Source: an uncultured Chloroflexia bacterium
Lineage (GTDB): Bacteria > Chloroflexota > Limnocylindria > QHBO01
Assembly (NCBI GenBank): GCA_963753125.1
Contig: CAVWAU010000004.1
Location: 54,445-118,444, forward strand
Reading direction: 5' to 3'
Length of the DNA stretch: 64,000 nt
Made by a program: the position numbers and the translations under genes. Positions 3,186 to 63,476 of the stretch are shown here, one piece after another. Within the stretch, counting starts at the first letter, position 1; each line of letters begins with the position of its first letter. Under the pieces are notes generated by a model, which searched no databases, was not told the DNA's origin, and saw nothing but the letters and a program-made list of their open reading frames with translations.

Positions 3186-3637
3186 GAAGCTCGCTTGCGA
3201 TAGACCATGTCGAAGTCGGGCTCCCAGGCCTTCCCGTCGGGGGACGACTCCCAGGCGCCCTCGATCGTCGAGTCGTCCCTGAAGGTGCCGATGAAGCGCT
3301 GGAAGAAGCCGGGCGCATCGCGCCAGACGGTCCAGGCGTCATCGGTCAGGGTCATGCGGTAGATGCGGAAGACTCCTCGCGCGTCGGCGTAGAGCTGGGT
3401 GCACTCGTCGGTCGTGTCGTCCCAGCCGATGACCGCTGTCACCGGCATCGGCGAGTTGGTCGCCCAGTCCTCCGACGTGTTGGGATCGGGTTCGTCATTG
3501 GCGTGCTGGATGACGAAGGCGCCCTGCTCGATCCACTCGAAGCTCGTGGATCCGCGCCCCAGGAAGCTCCCGCCGGCGCTGGCCTCGAAGTCCCAGGTGC
3601 CGATCAGGTGCCCGAGCGGGGAGCCGGCCTTCGTCAT
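3182..3637 (-). CDS. hypothetical protein (possibly a lipocalin-like beta-barrel)
   Basis: 151-aa ORF with non-GC-biased composition. It is translationally coupled to its neighbours in a five-gene minus-strand operon. Confidence 0.5.
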   Translation of the reverse strand: MTKAGSPLGHLIGTWDFEASAGGSFLGRGSTSFEWIEQGAFVIQHANDEPDPNTSEDWATNSPMPVTAVIGWDDTTDECTQLYADARGVFRIYRMTLTDDAWTVWRDAPGFFQRFIGTFRDDSTIEGAWESSPDGKAWEPDFDMVYRKRAS

Positions 3638-3641
3638 CGGT

Positions 3642-4151
3642 TCAGCTCCGGCTCGCGACCGGGTCCTCGGCGAGGATCGCGTCGATCTGGCCGATCGCCT
3701 GCTTGAGGCCCTCCTCCTGCCCCATGGCCAGGAGCTGCTCCATCGCCTCGGTGCTCGGGAAGAGGCTCTCGATCGACATCCGCGATCGCCCGTCGCCGAT
3801 CTCCTCGATCCGGACGCGCATTTCCCCCGTCGGGAAGTCCGCGTTCGGCGTGCCGTCGTCGTTCGCGAAGCCGTCGCGGACGACCAGCGAGCGTGGGGGA
3901 TCGGTCTCGAGGATGTCCCAGTAGCCCTTCGGCTGGTCGCCCTCGGGTCCGGTCATGTGGTACTCGACGCGGCTGCCTGGAGTCAGGTCGTGCTTCGTGA
4001 AAGTCGCGGGATAGGTCGGCGGCCCCCACCAGCGCTCGAGCTGGCGCGGATCGGCCCAGAGCTGCCACACCCGCTCGGCGGATGCGTCGAACTCGGCGTC
4101 GACGGTCATGGTCAGGTTGTCGGTGTCCTTGCGGACGGCGGTGACGGTCAT
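3642..4151 (-). CDS. SRPBCC family protein (AHSA1/Aha1-like)
   Basis: MTVTAVRKD...AEFDASAERVWQLWADPRQLERWWGPP is the AHSA1 signature. The ATG at 4151 overlaps the ArsR stop (ATGA). Confidence 0.8.
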   Translation of the reverse strand: MTVTAVRKDTDNLTMTVDAEFDASAERVWQLWADPRQLERWWGPPTYPATFTKHDLTPGSRVEYHMTGPEGDQPKGYWDILETDPPRSLVVRDGFANDDGTPNADFPTGEMRVRIEEIGDGRSRMSIESLFPSTEAMEQLLAMGQEEGLKQAIGQIDAILAEDPVASRS

Positions 4152-4561
4152 CGGTGTCTCTCCCTGGTGTACTCGTTGACGAGCTCGGTCATGCGGTCGA
4201 TCCGTCCGCGCCACAGCTCCTCGTACTGGTCAAGCAGGCGGCGCGCCACGCGCAGCCCCTCGACGTTGGTGCGGACGACCTTGCGTCGGCCGATGCGCTG
4301 CTTGGTGACCAGCCCGGCCCGCTCGAGGATCGCGACGTGCTTCTGCACCGCCGCAAAGCTCATCGGGTAGTGGCTGGCCATCTCGGCGATGCCCTCCTCG
4401 GCGTCGATCGCGCGGCGGACGATGTCGCGGCGGGTGTGGTCCGCCAGGGCGCCAAACATGCGGTCGAAGTCGGGAGGAGCGATCTGCACGATACAACCAT
4501 ACGGTTGTATGAGAGCCATGTCAAGTGTGCGGTTGGGCTTGTGCGTTTGCACCCGGCGCAA
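4148..4561 (-). CDS. ArsR/SmtB family transcriptional regulator
   Basis: FGALADHTRRDIVRRA...MSFAAVQKHVAILERAGLVT is the HTH. This is the classic ArsR + SRPBCC pairing. The start is uncertain (4561 or 4519). Confidence 0.8.
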   Translation of the reverse strand: MRRVQTHKPNRTLDMALIQPYGCIVQIAPPDFDRMFGALADHTRRDIVRRAIDAEEGIAEMASHYPMSFAAVQKHVAILERAGLVTKQRIGRRKVVRTNVEGLRVARRLLDQYEELWRGRIDRMTELVNEYTRERHR

Positions 4562-4715: not shown

Positions 4716-6311
4716 ATGACTCAGATGTCGGACGAGTACGTGGTGCCGGAGCGGGCGACCAGGCGCGAGTGGATCGGGCTGGCCGTGCTCACCCTCGCGG
4801 CCCTCGTCTACGCGATGGACCTGACCGTGCTCAACCTCGCCATCCCTCGCATCAGCACGGAGCTGCAACCAACTAGCGCGCAGCTGCTGTGGATCATCGA
4901 CATCTACGGCTTCCTGGTGGCCGGCCTGCTCATCACGATGGGCACGCTGGGAGATCGCATCGGCCGGCGAAAGCTCCTGCTGGGGGGCGCATCGGGCTTC
5001 GCGCTTGCCTCGCTGCTCGCAGCCTTCTCGACGAGCTCGGAGATGCTCATCGCCAGCCGAGCCGTCATGGGGATCGCCGGGGCGACGATCGCCCCCTCGA
5101 CGCTCTCGCTGATCTTCACCATGTTCCTCGACCCGAAGCAGCGCACCGTGGCGATCGGGTTCTGGATCGCCGCCTACTCTGCGGGCGGCGCGATCGGTCC
5201 GGTTCTCGGCGGCGTGCTCCTCGAATTCTTCTGGTGGGGCTCGGTGTTTCTCATCGGCGTCCCGGTGATGGGCCTGCTGCTCATCCTCGGCCCGCGCACC
5301 CTTCCCGAGTACAGGGACCCGAACGCTCGGCCCCTGGACGTCAGCAGCGCGGCGATGTCGCTGCTCGCCATCCTCGCCGTGGTCTTCGGGCTGAAGGAGA
5401 TCGCCCAGGGTGGGCTCGCGCCGATGCCGGTCGTCTCGATCGTCGTCGGCATCGGTCTTGGCGTCTGGTTCGTCCGCCGCCAGCTCCACCTCGAGTCGCC
5501 GATCATCGACGTGCGCCTCTTCAGGATCCGCGCCTTCTCGGCGTCGCTCGGCACGTACCTGCTGAGCATCTTCGTCGTCGTCGGCTACTTCCTGTTCATC
5601 GGGCAGTACATGCAGCTCGTCCTCGGCCTGTCGCCGATCCAGGCAGCGGTCTGGTCGCTTCCGTCGGCGGCCGGCTTCATCGTCGGGTCCGTGATGGCGC
5701 CGAGGATCATCCATCGGTGGCGCCCGTCGGTGATCATGGGCGCCGGCATGGCCGTCGCCGCACTCGGGACGGCGACGCTGCTCGGCCTCGGGCTCGACAC
5801 CGGCCCGGGCATCGCGATCATCGTCCTCGCGTCGATCGTCATCTCGCTCGGGCTCGCTCCGGTCATCACGCTCGCCACCGAGCTCATCGTCGGCAGCGCG
5901 CCGCCGGAGCAGGCCGGGGCCGCCACCGGCATGTCCGAGACGAGCGGCGAGCTCGGAGGGGCGCTTGGGATCGCGCTCCTCGGCAGCCTGGGGACCGCTG
6001 TCTACCGCAGCGAGATCGCGGACTCGCTCCCGTCGGGCATTCCCGCGGAGGTCGCCGGCGCGGCGCAGGACACGCTCGGTGGCGCGCTGGCAGTCGCTCA
6101 GACGCTGCCCGAGGCGCTCGGGGCGGCACTCGTCGCGGTGTCGCAGGCGGCCTTCATGGATGCGCTCCACTTCGTCGCCGGGGTGGCCACGATCCTCGCG
6201 GTGGTGACGGCGATTGCCGCCGCGTATGCCCTGCGCAGCGTGCCGGCGCGGTCGGAGCCGGACGTCGAGGAGGGAGCCACCACGCCGGAGCCTGTCGCCG
6301 CCGCCGATTGA
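4716..6311 (+). CDS. MFS transporter, DHA2 (EmrB/QacA-like, 14-TMS) drug efflux family
   Basis: 531 aa. LAVLTLAALVYAMDLTVLNLAIP and GTLGDRIGRRKLLL are MFS motifs A/D1. Confidence 0.85.
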   Translation: MTQMSDEYVVPERATRREWIGLAVLTLAALVYAMDLTVLNLAIPRISTELQPTSAQLLWIIDIYGFLVAGLLITMGTLGDRIGRRKLLLGGASGFALASLLAAFSTSSEMLIASRAVMGIAGATIAPSTLSLIFTMFLDPKQRTVAIGFWIAAYSAGGAIGPVLGGVLLEFFWWGSVFLIGVPVMGLLLILGPRTLPEYRDPNARPLDVSSAAMSLLAILAVVFGLKEIAQGGLAPMPVVSIVVGIGLGVWFVRRQLHLESPIIDVRLFRIRAFSASLGTYLLSIFVVVGYFLFIGQYMQLVLGLSPIQAAVWSLPSAAGFIVGSVMAPRIIHRWRPSVIMGAGMAVAALGTATLLGLGLDTGPGIAIIVLASIVISLGLAPVITLATELIVGSAPPEQAGAATGMSETSGELGGALGIALLGSLGTAVYRSEIADSLPSGIPAEVAGAAQDTLGGALAVAQTLPEALGAALVAVSQAAFMDALHFVAGVATILAVVTAIAAAYALRSVPARSEPDVEEGATTPEPVAAAD

Positions 6312-9664: not shown

Positions 9665-10657
9665 ATGAAGGCCGCGTTCCACGACCGATACGGCCCGCCC
9701 GAGGTCGTCGAGATCCGCGAGGTCGAGCGCCCGACGCCCACGGACGATCAGGTGCTCGTTCGCGTCCGTGCCGCATCGGTCAACCGCGCCGACCTCGATG
9801 GCCTGAAGCCGAAGCCAGGGTTCGTGCGCCTCTTCATGGGCATCCGCGCGCCCAGGGCCCACGAGGTCGGCATCGATGCGGCCGGCGTCGTCGAGGCGCT
9901 CGGACCCGACGTGACCCGCTTCAAGCCCGGCGACGAGGTCATGACCGACATGTTCGCGGCGGGGAAGTTCGGAGCCTTCGCGGAGTACGTGTGTGCGCGC
10001 GAGAAGGCCTTTGAGCCGATCCCGCCCGGCATGTCGTTCGAGGAGTCAGCCACGCTGCCGCACTCGGCGGTGCTGGCGCTCCAGGGGCTTCGCACGCGCA
10101 AGGGCCGGACGGTCAAGCCGGGAGAGAGGGTGCTGATCGACGGAGCCTCCGGCAACGTCGGGCCGTTCGCCGTCCAGATCGCGAAGTCGATGGGCGCGGA
10201 GGTGACAGGCGTCGCTCGCGGCGACAAGCTGGACTTCGTCCGATCGCTCGGCGCCGACCACGTGATCGACTACGAGAAGGTCGACTACACCAAGACGGGG
10301 GAGCGGTACGACTGGATCCTCGCCGTCGACTCGCACCTCCCGATCCTGCGGATGCGCCGCGCGCTGCGGCCGAACGGCGTGTATCTCACGCTCGGCGGCG
10401 ACTCGGCCGCCATCTTCGGCGGGGCCCTGGTGGGGCCGCTGACCTCCCTCTTCAGCGACCGATGGACCGGCCTGGTGCTGTGGTGGAAGCCGATGCACCG
10501 GCCCGACGTCAACACCCTGAAGGAGCTGATCGCGGCCGGAAAGCTCAGGCCGATCATCGATCGGCGCTATCCGCTGGAGCAGGTCGTCGACGCGCTTCGG
10601 TGGGTGGAGGACGGCCACGCCAAGGGCAAGGTCATCCTCAAGGTGTCTGATGACTGA
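9665..10657 (+). CDS. NAD(P)-dependent alcohol dehydrogenase / quinone oxidoreductase (zinc-binding MDR family)
   Basis: MKAAFHDRYGPPEVVEIREVERPTP is an MDR N-terminus and LIDGASGNVGPFAVQIAKSMGA is the Rossmann motif. The real start is internal to the 438-aa ORF. Confidence 0.8.
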   Translation: MKAAFHDRYGPPEVVEIREVERPTPTDDQVLVRVRAASVNRADLDGLKPKPGFVRLFMGIRAPRAHEVGIDAAGVVEALGPDVTRFKPGDEVMTDMFAAGKFGAFAEYVCAREKAFEPIPPGMSFEESATLPHSAVLALQGLRTRKGRTVKPGERVLIDGASGNVGPFAVQIAKSMGAEVTGVARGDKLDFVRSLGADHVIDYEKVDYTKTGERYDWILAVDSHLPILRMRRALRPNGVYLTLGGDSAAIFGGALVGPLTSLFSDRWTGLVLWWKPMHRPDVNTLKELIAAGKLRPIIDRRYPLEQVVDALRWVEDGHAKGKVILKVSDD

Positions 10658-37138: not shown

Positions 37139-38239
37139 ATGACCTCGACGCTGCCGACGACGCCGCTCAGTCGCGCCTCGACCCTGCCGAAGCGGTACTT
37201 CCTCGATCCCGACATCCTCGAGGCCGAGAAGGAACGGATCTTCGGCAGCACCTGGCAGCTCGTCGCAAAGACCGATGAGCTCCAGCGCATCGGCGACTTC
37301 GTGCCGGTGACGGTCCTCGACGAGCCGGTCGTCATCACACGCGGCCTGGAGGGGGAGCTGCGGGCCTTCTACAACGTCTGCCGGCATCGGGCCGGGCAGG
37401 TGGCGCTCTCCAAGGGCAATCGCAAGTCGCTCCAGTGCCGATACCACGGCTGGACCTACGGGCTGGACGGGTGTCTTCGCGCCGCTCCCGAGATGGAGGA
37501 GACCGAGGGATTCTCCAAGGACGACTTCGGGCTGATGCCGGTTCGCGTCGACGCCTGGGGCCCGTTCGTGTTCGTGTGCCTATCGGACTCGGCGCCGGCT
37601 TTGCGCGACATGATCGGGGCGATTCCCTCGGAGGTCGCAGCGGCCGGCTACGACGTGGAGTCCATGCGACTGGTCGAGCGGCGCGAGTACGTCGTCGAAT
37701 GCAACTGGAAGGTCTACGTCGACAACTACCTCGAGGGCTACCACCTGCCGATCGCGCACCCGCAGCTCTACAAGGAGCTCGACTACGACGCCTACCGCGT
37801 CGAGGAGTTCCGGTACTACAGCAAGCAGCACGCGCCGATCCGGGAGCTGAAACCGGGGGAGGAGATCGGGGTCGACCGTCGCTTCCTGCGTCAGCCTGGC
37901 GCCGAGGACTCGGCGCTCTACTTCTGGCTGTTCCCGAACACGATGTTCAACATCTACCAGGACAACATGTCCTCGAACGTCATCCTGCCGCTGGGCGTGG
38001 ACCGCACGCTCACGATCTTCGAGTGGTTCTTCGCCGACCCCGGTTCCGGCCCCGGCTGGGAGTCGATGCAGCAGACGATCGCCTTCTCCGACGAGATCCA
38101 GCAAGAGGACATCGTCATCTGCGAGCAGGTTCAGCGCGGCCTCCGATCACGCTCTTACGAGGCCGGCCGCTTCTCCGCCAAGCGCGAGAACGGCGTCTAC
38201 CACTTCCAGAACCTCGTCCGCGAGTTCCTCGGGAAGTAG
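37139..38239 (+). CDS. Rieske [2Fe-2S] aromatic-ring-hydroxylating oxygenase alpha subunit-like protein
   Basis: CRHRAG...CRYHGW is the Rieske motif, with mononuclear-iron EGYHLPIAH further on. The real ATG is at 37139; the 463-aa ORF N-terminus is antisense to the SBP gene. Confidence 0.85.
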   Translation: MTSTLPTTPLSRASTLPKRYFLDPDILEAEKERIFGSTWQLVAKTDELQRIGDFVPVTVLDEPVVITRGLEGELRAFYNVCRHRAGQVALSKGNRKSLQCRYHGWTYGLDGCLRAAPEMEETEGFSKDDFGLMPVRVDAWGPFVFVCLSDSAPALRDMIGAIPSEVAAAGYDVESMRLVERREYVVECNWKVYVDNYLEGYHLPIAHPQLYKELDYDAYRVEEFRYYSKQHAPIRELKPGEEIGVDRRFLRQPGAEDSALYFWLFPNTMFNIYQDNMSSNVILPLGVDRTLTIFEWFFADPGSGPGWESMQQTIAFSDEIQQEDIVICEQVQRGLRSRSYEAGRFSAKRENGVYHFQNLVREFLGK

Positions 38240-38256
38240 CACCCGGCGCCATTCTC

Positions 38257-38387
38257 GTCAGATTCAGTTGGCAGCCGCGGTATCTGCGTCATCGGTCCGC
38301 CGGCCCGTCAACTGCGGCTGTGACCCTGCAGGGCGGCGACTTCTGACGCGTTTCGCATCGGTAGTGCGGCGGTCACCTGAATCTGAC
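38257..38387. repeat. MITE-like 131-bp element with ~26-bp terminal inverted repeats, copy 1
   Basis: Left end GTCAGATTCAGTTGGCAGCCGCGGTA. Right end GGTAGTGCGGCGGTCACCTGAATCTGAC. Confidence 0.6.
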
Positions 38388-38737
38388 AGGCTGTGGAACC
38401 AGAGCAGGCCCGAGGCGGGAAGCGTTGGGGTTCGGAGCCATCGCCGCGTCGAGCCGCCCCGGATCGCGAACGTCTCGAGAAGCGCCTCGTGCCGAGCGAC
38501 GATGCGGCGGTTCGTGCTGTCCTCCGCAAGCACCAGCGCCCTCACCGCGGACGACGGCGGCCCAAGGCCGAGCTCTCGCGAGATGACGCCGGCGAGCCGC
38601 ATTTTCGTATCGAGCCGATGGAGCGTCTCCTGGAGATTCCCCAGCCTGGACTTCACCTCGACGATGAGCAGGATCCGATGGACCGGATGCCACGCAACGA
38701 GGTCGCAGCTGCCTCGATCGCCGTAGTGGTTGAACGT
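38264..38737 (-). pseudogene. PD-(D/E)xK nuclease-like (YraN/UPF0102-like) gene remnant lying between two copies of the element
   Basis: Stop-to-stop frame on the minus strand. TFNHYGDRGSCDLVAWHPVHRILLIVEVKSRLGN... carries the D...EVK motif. The C-terminal 41 codons are read from element copy 1, and an in-frame TGA sits immediately upstream. Confidence 0.3.
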
Positions 38738-38789
38738 TCACGCCATCTTCGCGATCGCCGCATACTGCGTGCGTACGGCGCGCTTATTG

Positions 38790-38920
38790 ATCAGATTCAG
38801 ATGAGGGCCGCACTACGCGCTGAATCGGCCCGCCTACTCGTCATATGCGGCGCTGGTCCTGCAGCTCGGCGGGTGGAGGCGCCGCTCGCCGAGTTAGTGC
38901 GGCAGTGGCATGAATCTGAC
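38790..38920. repeat. MITE-like 131-bp element, copy 2
   Basis: Left end ATCAGATTCAGATGAGGGCCGCACTA. Right end GTTAGTGCGGCAGTGGCATGAATCTGAC. Same orientation and length as copy 1; the interior is about 60% identical, with a shared CCTGCAG core. Confidence 0.6.
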
Positions 38921-38953
38921 GGAACGTCGCTACTGGCCCGCTACGCTCCACAA

Positions 38954-39226
38954 ATGACCTACGAGGAGCTCCTCGAAATCGCACGCAAGAACGCAGGCAA
39001 GACGCTCGAGACCGTCACCGGGAAGCGCTTCACCGTCGGCATCTACCGCGACTGCCCGTTCTTCACGCCGGCCTCGAGCGGCTACGGCCAGAGCGACGGC
39101 CGCCCCGCGGCCGAGCGCTTCCTCCGGCGGTACAACGAGACCGGCAGCCTCCGCCCGGGCGACTACGCGGACGTCACCAGGAACGCGTCGTACTTCATCG
39201 GTCTCCTGATCAACGGCGTACGCTGA
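38954..39226 (+). CDS. hypothetical small protein (90 aa)
   Basis: MTYEELLEIARKNAGKTLETVTGKRFTVGIYRDCPFFTPASSGYGQSDGRP... Starts 34 bp after copy 2 and ends 5 bp before the C-N hydrolase gene. Confidence 0.5.
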   Translation: MTYEELLEIARKNAGKTLETVTGKRFTVGIYRDCPFFTPASSGYGQSDGRPAAERFLRRYNETGSLRPGDYADVTRNASYFIGLLINGVR

Positions 39227-39230
39227 ACGG

Positions 39231-40085
39231 ATGACGACCACCCCACCGACCAGGGCCGACGGCAAGCTGACGGTCGCCCTCGTCTCGGAGGTCTTCTGGG
39301 AGGCCGATGGCGCCCAGCGCCTCCGCCAGCGCCTCGCCGAGGTTGCCGAGCGTGGCGCGGACCTCGCGGTTCTCCCGGAGATCCCGCTCAACCCGTGGCG
39401 CCCCGCCAGCAGGGAGGCGCACGATGACGACGCCGAGCCGATGGACGGGCCCCGCTCGAAGGCCCAGCAGGACGCGGCGAGGGAAGCCGGGATCGGCTTG
39501 GTGGGCGGCATCATCCACCGCGAGCCGGACACGGGCCGCCGGACGAGCCGCGCGCTGATCATCGACGGCGCCGGCCAGATCCGGGCGACCTACGAGAAGC
39601 TCCACCTGCCGGAGGAGCCGGGCTTCTGGGAGACGAGCCACTACGAGCCGGGCACCAAGCCGCCGAACAGGATCGACGCCTTCAGCCTGCCCATCGGTGT
39701 CCAGATCTGCTCCGACAACAACCGGCCGCAGGGGACGCACCTGCTCGGGGCACAGGGCGCGATGGCGGTCGTCGTCCCGAGAGCCAGCGAGGAGAAGACC
39801 TACCAGCGCTGGAAGAGCGTCTTCCGCTCGAATGCGCTGACCGGCTGCCTCTACGTCCTGAGCGTGAACCGCCCGCATCCGGAGGAGGGCGTGCTGATCG
39901 GCGGGCCGAGCGTCGCCTTCGACCCCAACGGCGAGCTCCTCACGGAAACCACGGACCAGGTCGCTCTCGTCACCCTGGCAGCCTCAACGGTGACCGATGC
40001 GCGCCGCGCGTATCCCGGGTATCTGCCGATCCACGCCCGCCTCTACGCCGATGCCTGGGCCGAGATCGCCGGAACCGACGGCTGA
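39231..40085 (+). CDS. carbon-nitrogen hydrolase family protein (nitrilase/amidase superfamily)
   Basis: 284 aa. LAVLPE is the catalytic Glu region, a Lys region follows, and IGVQICSDN is the catalytic Cys. Confidence 0.8.
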   Translation: MTTTPPTRADGKLTVALVSEVFWEADGAQRLRQRLAEVAERGADLAVLPEIPLNPWRPASREAHDDDAEPMDGPRSKAQQDAAREAGIGLVGGIIHREPDTGRRTSRALIIDGAGQIRATYEKLHLPEEPGFWETSHYEPGTKPPNRIDAFSLPIGVQICSDNNRPQGTHLLGAQGAMAVVVPRASEEKTYQRWKSVFRSNALTGCLYVLSVNRPHPEEGVLIGGPSVAFDPNGELLTETTDQVALVTLAASTVTDARRAYPGYLPIHARLYADAWAEIAGTDG

Positions 40086-62942: not shown

Positions 62943-63200
62943 TCAGTTCAGCGAGTCGTCGTCGCAGCAGTCGTCGGGGCCGTGGCTGCAGTCGACCGAC
63001 AGGAGGTGGGCTCCGGAGATCCCGAGGAGAGCCGAGCAGACCGCGTCCTCGCTGGGGCGATCGTGCTCGAGGGTCTCCAGGGCGAGCTCCACGCGGGCCG
63101 ACAGGGTGGCGCTCATCGACTCGTTCGCGCCGAAGGTGCGCCACATGCCGTCGTCGTCCCAGATGACGATGCCGTAGCCCTTGACTGCCACCGAGAACAT
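62943..63200 (-). CDS. hypothetical small acidic Cys-rich protein (85 aa)
   Basis: MFSVAVKGYGIVIWDDDGMWRTF...SVDCSHGPDDCCDDDSLN. No family recognised. Confidence 0.35.
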   Translation of the reverse strand: MFSVAVKGYGIVIWDDDGMWRTFGANESMSATLSARVELALETLEHDRPSEDAVCSALLGISGAHLLSVDCSHGPDDCCDDDSLN

Positions 63201-63344
63201 CGGTCTTCTCGTTCCAAAAGTACTGGTGTGGTACTGGGACTCAGGATGAGGCTGCCGAGCTCGCGTGCCAAGTGTGCGCGTCCACCCAAGAGCGCACCCG
63301 ACCGATCAAAGTTGCCGGTCGTGACGCCGTCGGTAGGCGGTTCC

Positions 63345-63476
63345 GTCAGATTCACGCCACGGCCGCACGAACTCGCGTACCAGGGTCGGATTCCGCCGCG
63401 GTGCAGGGTGGGAGCCGCAGATGACGTGTCCAGGCCCGATCCGGGAGCGTAATGCGGCGCTCATCATGAATCTGAC
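63345..63476. repeat. MITE-like element, copy 3 (132 bp)
   Basis: Left end GTCAGATTCACGCCACGGCCGCACGA. Right end CGTAATGCGGCGCTCATCATGAATCTGAC. Same TIR pair as copies 1 and 2. Confidence 0.55.

Follow-up and report, generated by a model that had tools for sequence, protein, structure and literature searches.

The Correia elements of Neisseria are bacterial MITEs (transposable elements of the miniature inverted-repeat kind) without a known transposase, and the attC sites of integrons are imperfect palindromes that lie at the 3' end of an open reading frame (ORF) and are conserved mainly at their ends. Insertion that abuts its target without duplicating it is known from HUH-type (IS200/IS605, IS91) transposition. 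A closer pairing of one enzyme gene with one kind of short repeat is described for doublets of repetitive extragenic palindromic (REP) sequences, the REPINs, and the REP-associated tyrosine transposases (RAYTs) (PMC3116915, PMC3337134, bioRxiv 10.1101/2021.07.10.451892). Here we analysed a stretch of 64,000 nucleotides from an uncultured Chloroflexia bacterium of the class Limnocylindria (contig CAVWAU010000004.1, positions 54,445 to 118,444; hereafter the window), in which the remnant of a nuclease gene lies between two copies of a non-coding 131-bp element with terminal inverted repeats (TIRs). By itself this locus is an ordinary pseudogene, and its value lies in exposing a conserved arrangement. 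It is a dead copy of a Limnocylindria gene module, in which such elements are the normal partners of the gene family, and we lean modestly towards the view that the nuclease would act on its own flanking repeats.

The minus strand at 38264–38830 translates as …LINKRAVRTQYAAIAKMA, a stop and TFNHYGDRGSCDLVAWHPVHRILLIVEVKSRLGNLQETLHRL…, identical to the quotation in an earlier, sequence-only reading of this DNA, with the in-frame TGA at 38738–38740 and the stop of the ORF at 38264–38266. That reading had described two directly oriented TIR-element copies bracketing a decayed gene with a PD-(D/E)xK core, whose frame is closed by an in-frame TGA and whose last 41 codons come from one of the copies, and in all of this it was borne out. 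Copy 1, which stands downstream of the gene (element D, 38257–38387, minus strand), and copy 2, which stands upstream (element U, 38790–38920, minus strand), each measure 131 nt and have the same polarity by nhmmer, and the inner half of element D forms the native 3' end of the nuclease gene. With one mismatch allowed, the window contains six matches to the terminus GTCAGATTCAG, where 0.81 would be expected and none of 100 shuffles reached six, and these matches pair as three units of ~131 nt: copies 1 and 2, and a solo copy (c3, 63345–63476, plus strand), which is intergenic and lies between the gene of an 85-aa protein and a LacI-type regulator gene. The units are polar, scoring 94–122 bits by nhmmer on one strand and 14–29 on the other; according to both alignment and nhmmer, copies 1 and 2 point the same way and c3 is inverted.

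Each unit follows one plan, namely a paired tip TCAGATTCA/TGAATCTGA, an unpaired spacer of ~7 nt, behind it another paired box (GCCGCAC/GTGCGGC), and in the middle the conserved CTGCAGGnTGA; in element D the tips are GTCAGATTCAG/CTGAATCTGAC, the subterminal pair is GCCGCAC/GTGCGGC and the centre is CCTGCAGGGTCA. Among 23 copies from several genomes, the ends (tips and subterminal box together) pair in 82% of cells, compared to 27–35% when the partner is slid by 1–3 columns. The elements have no independent coding capacity and encode no transposase, and being short, non-coding and bounded by TIRs they agree with MITEs in these respects. Their centre (38317–38329 in the window, minus strand) is kept equally in non-coding copies, whether upstream or solo. 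Orthologous elements group by position, D with D (87% identity between the window and a close relative, locus L001) and U with U (78% in the same comparison); in L004, U and D are mutual nearest neighbours at 77%. U and D of one locus are usually ~60–68% identical. We also considered the elements as RNA hairpins and disfavoured this reading: mismatches in the paired ends comprised 21 of the G-T and 26 of the A-C type (p 0.56), and the lack of a G-T excess argues against a hairpin formed by the sense-strand RNA. RNAalifold retained the tip stem alone, an Rfam cmscan of 38000–39300 at E ≤ 1 returned only a chance snoRNA match outside the elements, and a promoter and terminator scan of the region found no promoter-like site, and terminator-like sites in the leader remnant of the gene only, none in the elements.

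The remnant aligns to residues 104–240 of a protein family of which a large protein collection yielded 82 relatives (E down to 1.5e-42, 50–70% identity; 51–71% to the 240-aa proteins). Nearly all of them measure ~240 aa and begin with an XRE-type helix-turn-helix (HTH) domain (PF13560/PF01381), and those with names are labelled 'XRE family transcriptional regulator'. The family forms 773 clusters at 50% identity (E ≤ 1e-30) and, among species-representative genomes, is almost confined to metagenome-assembled genomes of the Chloroflexota class Limnocylindria, at 1–2 copies per genome. Residues invariant among 32 sequences include F104, N105, G108, R110, G111, D114, E129 and K131, with E101 nearly so; the window remnant keeps D114, E129 and K131, while its start codon, its HTH domain and helix alpha-1 with E101 are gone. 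An AlphaFold model of a full-length member, P0013 (mean predicted local distance difference test score, pLDDT, 83; core ~90), shows the HTH domain followed by an alpha-beta-beta-beta-alpha-beta core (H78-93, E97-106, E109-119, E124-131, H137-149, E165-173). In Foldseek searches this core matched the R2 restriction-like endonuclease (RLE) domain (E 1.7e-4), Can2/Card1, AF1548, XisH, Upx and Bax1, and the N-terminus matched HipB, HigA and C-proteins. The XRE-HTH profile was matched by 29 of the 32 members, and the PDB profiles of HigA2 and C.Esp1396I at E 1e-7 to 1e-6.

It is the predicted structure, then, rather than membership of a Pfam family, that supports a PD-(D/E)xK-type nuclease core with its D…E-V-K retained in the window. 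The conserved catalytic residues, together with purifying selection, indicate that intact members are probably active nucleases, and their HTH domain would bind DNA. The assignment to YraN/UPF0102 or Hjc that had been proposed did not survive: all matches of the remnant in Pfam and NCBIfam stayed under the curated cut-offs (VRR_NUC E 0.04, UPF0102 E 0.07, YraN E 0.01; in bits, 13.9 for PF02021 against 23.6 and 15.8 for NF009154 against 109), and UPF0102-type matches in 14 of the 32 members were likewise sub-threshold (best E 6e-4, below the gathering score). YraN/UPF0102 proteins are moreover small (~120 aa) and of a single domain, unlike the ~240-aa intact relatives with their N-terminal HTH. 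No Hjc model from Pfam was matched by the remnant at E ≤ 1 or by the 32 members at E ≤ 0.1, nor was Hjc among the top 50 Foldseek matches. PADLOC gave matches at the level of the HTH only and no known defence protein.

The relation of gene to element is the same in relatives with intact genes. In all loci where the nhmmer model detects the element (L001–L011, L013–L016, L040 and L207; L012 stops short of the gene's 3' end), a copy stands at the 3' end of the gene. In the intact relatives the element starts at about codon 220 of 240, so that it provides ~20 codons and the stop codon, which is the TGA of its central CTGCAGGnTGA and gives the protein a C-terminus of the form …AG-stop. The central TGA is mutated in two dead genes, to TCA in the window and to CCA in a more distant relative (L002), and the ORF consequently runs across the whole element, in the window as far as 38264. 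Thus the overlap is native, and the gene was not hit at its 3' end, contrary to the sequence-only reading. Judging from its codons, the element-coded tail is free of constraint at the protein level: differences are equally frequent at codon positions 1, 2 and 3 (0.56/0.58/0.58), compared to a 1.7–2.0-fold excess at position 3 in both domains. The tail is disordered, its pLDDT in the AlphaFold model being <50. At about residue 220 the functional protein is complete, and its frame always continues into the element.

An upstream element in the same orientation ends 40–60 bp before the start codon in L001–L006, L008, L009 and L016. The nhmmer element model fails in the more distant of the syntenic loci and in paralogues from unrelated contexts, though inverted repeats are still found there de novo, with the left arm 45–100 nt before the stop codon and the right arm 10–130 nt after it, in lineage-specific sequences (arms of 31 nt in L018 and 28 nt in L051, for example). 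An inverted repeat spanning the stop codon with a score of at least 12 was found in 15 of 73 loci and at 0.8% of control positions (Mann-Whitney p 1.7e-11). Among the paralogues the recognition helix of the HTH and the sequence of the repeat both change while the junction persists, which suggests that the elements are the cognate sites of the enzyme. Co-variation of recognition helix and repeat, tried as a test of its own, proved consistent with this and confounded by phylogeny, and we set it aside. Directly downstream of the gene's 3' end, L063 carries arrays of the element (3600–4450, periods of 61 and 171 nt) and L010 a 180-bp unit duplicated at 99% identity (3623–3989).

The loss of the gene's 5' end has a separate cause. 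L001 is the orthologous locus of a close relative, with a CN-hydrolase 88% identical to that of the window and the order CN-hydrolase, small ORF, gene, Rieske oxygenase, and it carries the gene at full length, with its true start at the ATG at 5979. In a DNA alignment the window is collinear with L001 from the upstream element through the leader, whose ~50 nt reach to the start codon (window 38741–38789, minus strand, aligning to L001 5926–5977), and then from F104 onward. The ~308 bp in between (L001 5978–6285) are absent from the window, with ACG in their place; on this alignment the deletion junction is at 38735–38740 (minus strand), where the TGA at 38738–38740 closes the reading derived from the leader and ACG follows. 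Start codon and HTH domain fell within the deletion, as did alpha-1, the first helix of the core, with E101; both elements and the leader survive. The leader being untranslated in L001 and other relatives, the residues KRAVRTQYAAIAKMA ahead of the TGA, which had been taken for 'YraN-like' sequence, are untranslated leader that by chance is open in this frame. Past the TGA, the first start codon of the frame is a GTG within E-V-K, and so no product can hold the catalytic D. On its sequence, the window gene (38264–38734, minus strand, from codon F104 of the family to the C-terminus and on by read-through across element D) is a pseudogene.

L002 has undergone a separate deletion, which joins position ~117 of its upstream element directly to …HYGDRG. 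The two deletions (window 38732–38740, L002 ~890–900) differ at their left ends and resume at most 2 codons apart (F104 and H106), both just ahead of the FNHYGDRG motif. The gene of L001 appears doubly frameshifted, and we considered this as a third, independent decay; we rejected it as untrustworthy, since the sister assemblies are rich in indels. The long-read metagenome assemblies concerned (ERZ250395xx, MFD series; e.g. L001 6458–6612, L207, L030) hold many small indels that break conserved genes, and the frameshift was not counted as decay.

Upstream of intact genes, the leader carries repeats of another kind. The 75-nt leaders of 27 loci (drawn from L001, L003–L031 and L040) contain 50 RTAA motifs spaced by exactly 11 or 22 nt, against 1.7 expected, and this phasing suggests an autoregulatory operator; the repeats are probably an operator or promoter. 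The repeats come in twos or threes and are of the type (G/A)TAA(G/T)C, the last of them 27–32 nt before the start codon. In the window, the leader at 38741–38789 retains degenerate (G/A)TAA-type repeats in 11-nt phase, AATAAGCGCGCC GTACGCACGCA GTATGCGGCGA. The idea that these are the motif of the elements' subterminal box was dropped, as the matrix scored 5.16 in elements and 5.08 in shuffles.

The setting of the module is conserved as well. About 35 loci share its neighbours, which are a zinc-ribbon protein, CN-hydrolase, Rieske oxygenase and an ABC transporter, and from this synteny the module is vertically inherited at the locus between the CN-hydrolase and Rieske genes. The block of elements and gene occupies the gap between the Rieske gene and a small 90-aa gene in the window's clade (type A; the window, L001, L002, L009, L014, L019, L021, L022, L029, L030, L034 and L038), and the gap between the 90-aa gene and the CN-hydrolase in another group (type B; L003, L006, L007, L017, L020, L027, L028 and L032); a third group of genomes has no 90-aa gene. 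In both arrangements the outer TIRs come within 18–34 bp of the neighbouring genes. For both positions to exist, the block or else the small gene must have relocated at least once.

Besides c3, there are three solo copies of the element, in metagenome contigs without the gene; the pattern used in that metagenome scan, TCAGATTCA-N7-GCCGCA, was too loose, and 117 of its 120 loci were chance matches and 3 real. The site orthologous to c3 is empty in L203, L204 and L205 (at about 9780–10000), where 58–73 nt separate the conserved blocks, compared to 65 + 132 nt in the window, and in L206 it holds a 5'-truncated copy (9768–9866). Solo copies and a site filled in one genome and empty in others suggest that the elements are or were mobile. 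In their dispersal and insertion polymorphism they again agree with MITEs, though the copies are few. Directly beside one tip of four independent copies (window 38921–38925 and 63340–63344, L165 951–955, L188 946–950) stands GGAAC, or GTTCC as read from the opposite strand, and the empty site of L204 (~9860) reads TTCCT|GGAACC. GGAAC at the tip, with no duplication, suggests target-specific insertion.

How the gene and the elements came to stand together can be read in several ways. According to the sequence-only reading, a mobile element inserted into both ends of a bystander nuclease gene and left either a composite or pseudo-composite structure with remnant cargo or a hot spot of repeated insertion. 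Two direct copies do bracket the remnant, the solo copies and the filled and empty site make it probable that the element inserts, and the block of U, gene and D lies on different sides of the 90-aa gene by lineage, which fits movement as a unit. However, the 5' truncation is an internal deletion that left the upstream element and leader intact and collinear with L001, and the 3' overlap is conserved among intact genes from many species and is also seen in paralogues whose repeat sequences differ. Composite transposons are flanked by insertion sequences that code for a transposase, and their cargo is also found without the flanks; the flanks here are 131 bp long and non-coding, which makes this no usual composite, and every family locus detected by the element model carries the element at the gene's 3' end. 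Nor does a hot spot agree with a gene that stays at the same syntenic locus across the class. An intact orthologue that keeps these boundaries in relatives free of the elements had been named as the finding that would count against this account; intact orthologues exist, but they carry the elements. Altogether we think it very unlikely that the gene was a chance victim. A block that is itself a transposon, autonomous and rarely moving, would also bring gene and elements together: it would consist of element, leader, gene and element, bounded by its outer TIRs, and leave solo copies through recombination between direct copies, as solo long terminal repeats arise, or through action in trans. Such a transposon would account for the outer TIRs standing so near the neighbouring genes in both type A and type B, for paralogues with their own repeats in unrelated contexts, and for the repeated decay of the gene (the window, L002, P0081/P0082), as in dispensable selfish genes. 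Against it stand the single relocation that can be inferred, which follows phylogeny, the 1–2 copies per genome, the many intact loci without an upstream element, the divergence of U and D, which speaks against recent transposition, and the failure to find a target-site duplication around the block, and we regard it as quite unlikely.

The protein might, on the other hand, be an ordinary autoregulated XRE regulator, or a stand-alone nuclease of defence or repair, whose 3' inverted repeat acts in cis, for instance as transcript end, stabiliser or distal operator, with the dispersed copies moved by another enzyme or duplicated by chance. The strong phased repeats of the leader fit autoregulation by an HTH protein and are unlike the elements, the solo copies are few, and GGAAC at one tip of four copies without duplication could point to a different enzyme. 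Against this stand, however, the absence of a G-T over A-C bias by strand, of any Rfam family and of any terminator-like site within the elements, and the match to known defence proteins at the HTH only. A junction that is kept while repeat and recognition helix change also makes little sense for a gene and a repeat with no functional relation; we judge this alternative unlikely. It is highly improbable that the elements are integron-type attC sites and the gene their cassette, despite the shared layout of a ~130-bp imperfect palindrome at the 3' end of an ORF, with a paired tip, a 7-nt unpaired spacer and a second paired box, and direct copies on both sides of the gene. The ends read (G)TCAGATTCA/TGAATCTGA(C) and not RYYYAAC/GTTRRRY, the loci contain no integrase or cassette array and have conserved housekeeping genes in fixed order as neighbours, and the solo copy c3 lies within a divergent promoter region.

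The module that we favour would work as follows. The HTH of the protein would bind DNA, with autoregulation at the leader repeats being probable, and the nuclease domain would act on its cognate TIR elements and so mobilise or maintain them. A single-copy, vertically inherited enzyme would in this way be accompanied by a small population of non-autonomous repeats, as a RAYT is by REPINs, on an unrelated fold; in the window's lineage the enzyme is dead, and its elements would be fossils. A more specific proposal, that the HTH/PD-(D/E)xK nuclease, vertically inherited and nearly single-copy, is a dedicated mobiliser of ~130-bp TIR elements, one of them always fused to the 3' end of its own gene, inserting them beside GGAAC without duplication, and as such an unrecognised system, is tentative and to our mind doubtful. 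Such a mobiliser would be the counterpart in function of RAYT/REPIN, with a restriction-endonuclease fold as its basis, and might be the first stand-alone PD-(D/E)xK protein in a transposase-like role.

Several observations weigh against a nuclease acting on its own repeats. That the protein binds or cuts the elements is something we infer, and a transposase unrelated to it, encoded at another place in the genome, could be what moves them. Copy number appears low: the 64 kb have a single solo copy, and 80 kb of relatives a single truncated one (the count covers the 64-kb window and relative loci of at most 20 kb), and no direct repeat that could be a target-site duplication was found around c1, c2, c3, L125 or L165. 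In L010 and L063 the additional copies next to the gene, which we had considered as products of transposition, are tandem duplications instead. The upstream element is absent from many intact loci, a stop-spanning repeat was detected in only ~40% of loci (gapless test, score at least 10), with many distant paralogues having none detectable, and the position-weight matrix of the leader repeats is unenriched in the elements. Finally, several of the comparison loci are error-prone long-read assemblies, in which small frameshifts are unreliable.

Around the module, the Rieske oxygenase gene (plus strand) ends at 38239 in the list of ORFs, and the C-N hydrolase gene starts at 39231, directly after the 90-aa ORF (38954–39226, plus strand). 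As had been observed before, this ORF begins 34 bp past copy 2. The gene is conserved around the CN-hydrolase and lies outside the module: in at least 20 related loci a homologue adjoins the CN-hydrolase or else the module, which it may flank on one side or the other; searches of Pfam and NCBIfam gave it no family. The gene of the 85-aa protein next to c3 (62943–63200, minus strand) encodes a cysteine- and aspartate-rich product that ends in …CSHGPDDCCDDDSLN, has more than 160 close homologues and no Pfam domain, and adjoins an ABC-2 transporter operon in most relatives examined.

Compared with the described systems, the arrangement is most reminiscent of REPIN-RAYT, in that copies of a short palindromic or inverted-repeat element, which is also dispersed, non-coding, roughly 100–130 bp long and lineage-specific in sequence, flank an enzyme gene that is single-copy and for the most part passed on vertically. 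It differs in its enzyme, which is XRE-HTH plus PD-(D/E)xK and not HUH/Y1 (IS200/IS605-like), no Y1 family having appeared in the Pfam output; in the overlap of the element with the last ~20 codons of the gene, to which it supplies the stop codon; and in a copy number that appears low, with three copies in the 64-kb window, where REPINs reach tens to hundreds of repeats per genome, the role of the enzyme being a predicted one here. With Correia-type MITEs the elements share a length of ~100–150 bp, terminal inverted repeats of ~26 nt, the lack of coding capacity, intergenic solo copies and presence/absence polymorphism, and they depart from them in having no target-site duplication that we found, in the repeated placement of a tip at GGAAC and in their fixed link to one gene family.

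Among nucleases, the best Foldseek matches are PD-(D/E)xK enzymes of mobile or site-specific systems, namely the R2 RLE domain, XisH, type II restriction endonucleases and Can2/Card1, which agree in predicted fold and in the D…(D/E)xK motif, at identities of 7–18% and with other domain partners; to our knowledge, none of these has a TIR element fused to its 3' end. YraN/UPF0102 and Hjc belong to the same superfamily and have a similar GD..D-x(14)-E-x-K spacing, whereas our family has an N-terminal HTH and twice the length, is found almost only in one bacterial class and scores under the curated cut-offs. The N-terminal domain resembles the C-proteins of restriction-modification systems and the antitoxins HigA/HipB in sequence (E 1e-7 to 1e-6), in structure and in the phased repeats upstream, unlike which it is fused to a nuclease domain, with no toxin, methyltransferase or restriction gene nearby in the loci. 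The combination of HTH-nuclease and 3' TIR was not found in the Pfam, NCBIfam, PADLOC or Rfam libraries or in the literature searched, and a literature search on Limnocylindria repeats returned nothing relevant. For the annotation of Limnocylindria genomes, it concerns genes now called 'XRE family transcriptional regulator', whose annotated C-terminal tails are read-through into a repeat element. Should the nuclease indeed act on the elements, it would constitute a second, independent origin of the REPIN-RAYT-like pairing of an enzyme with an intragenomic repeat, and would add the PD-(D/E)xK fold to the classes of enzyme that move or maintain miniature repeats. The arrangement is for now best filed under the theme of a domesticated enzyme plus a miniature repeat.

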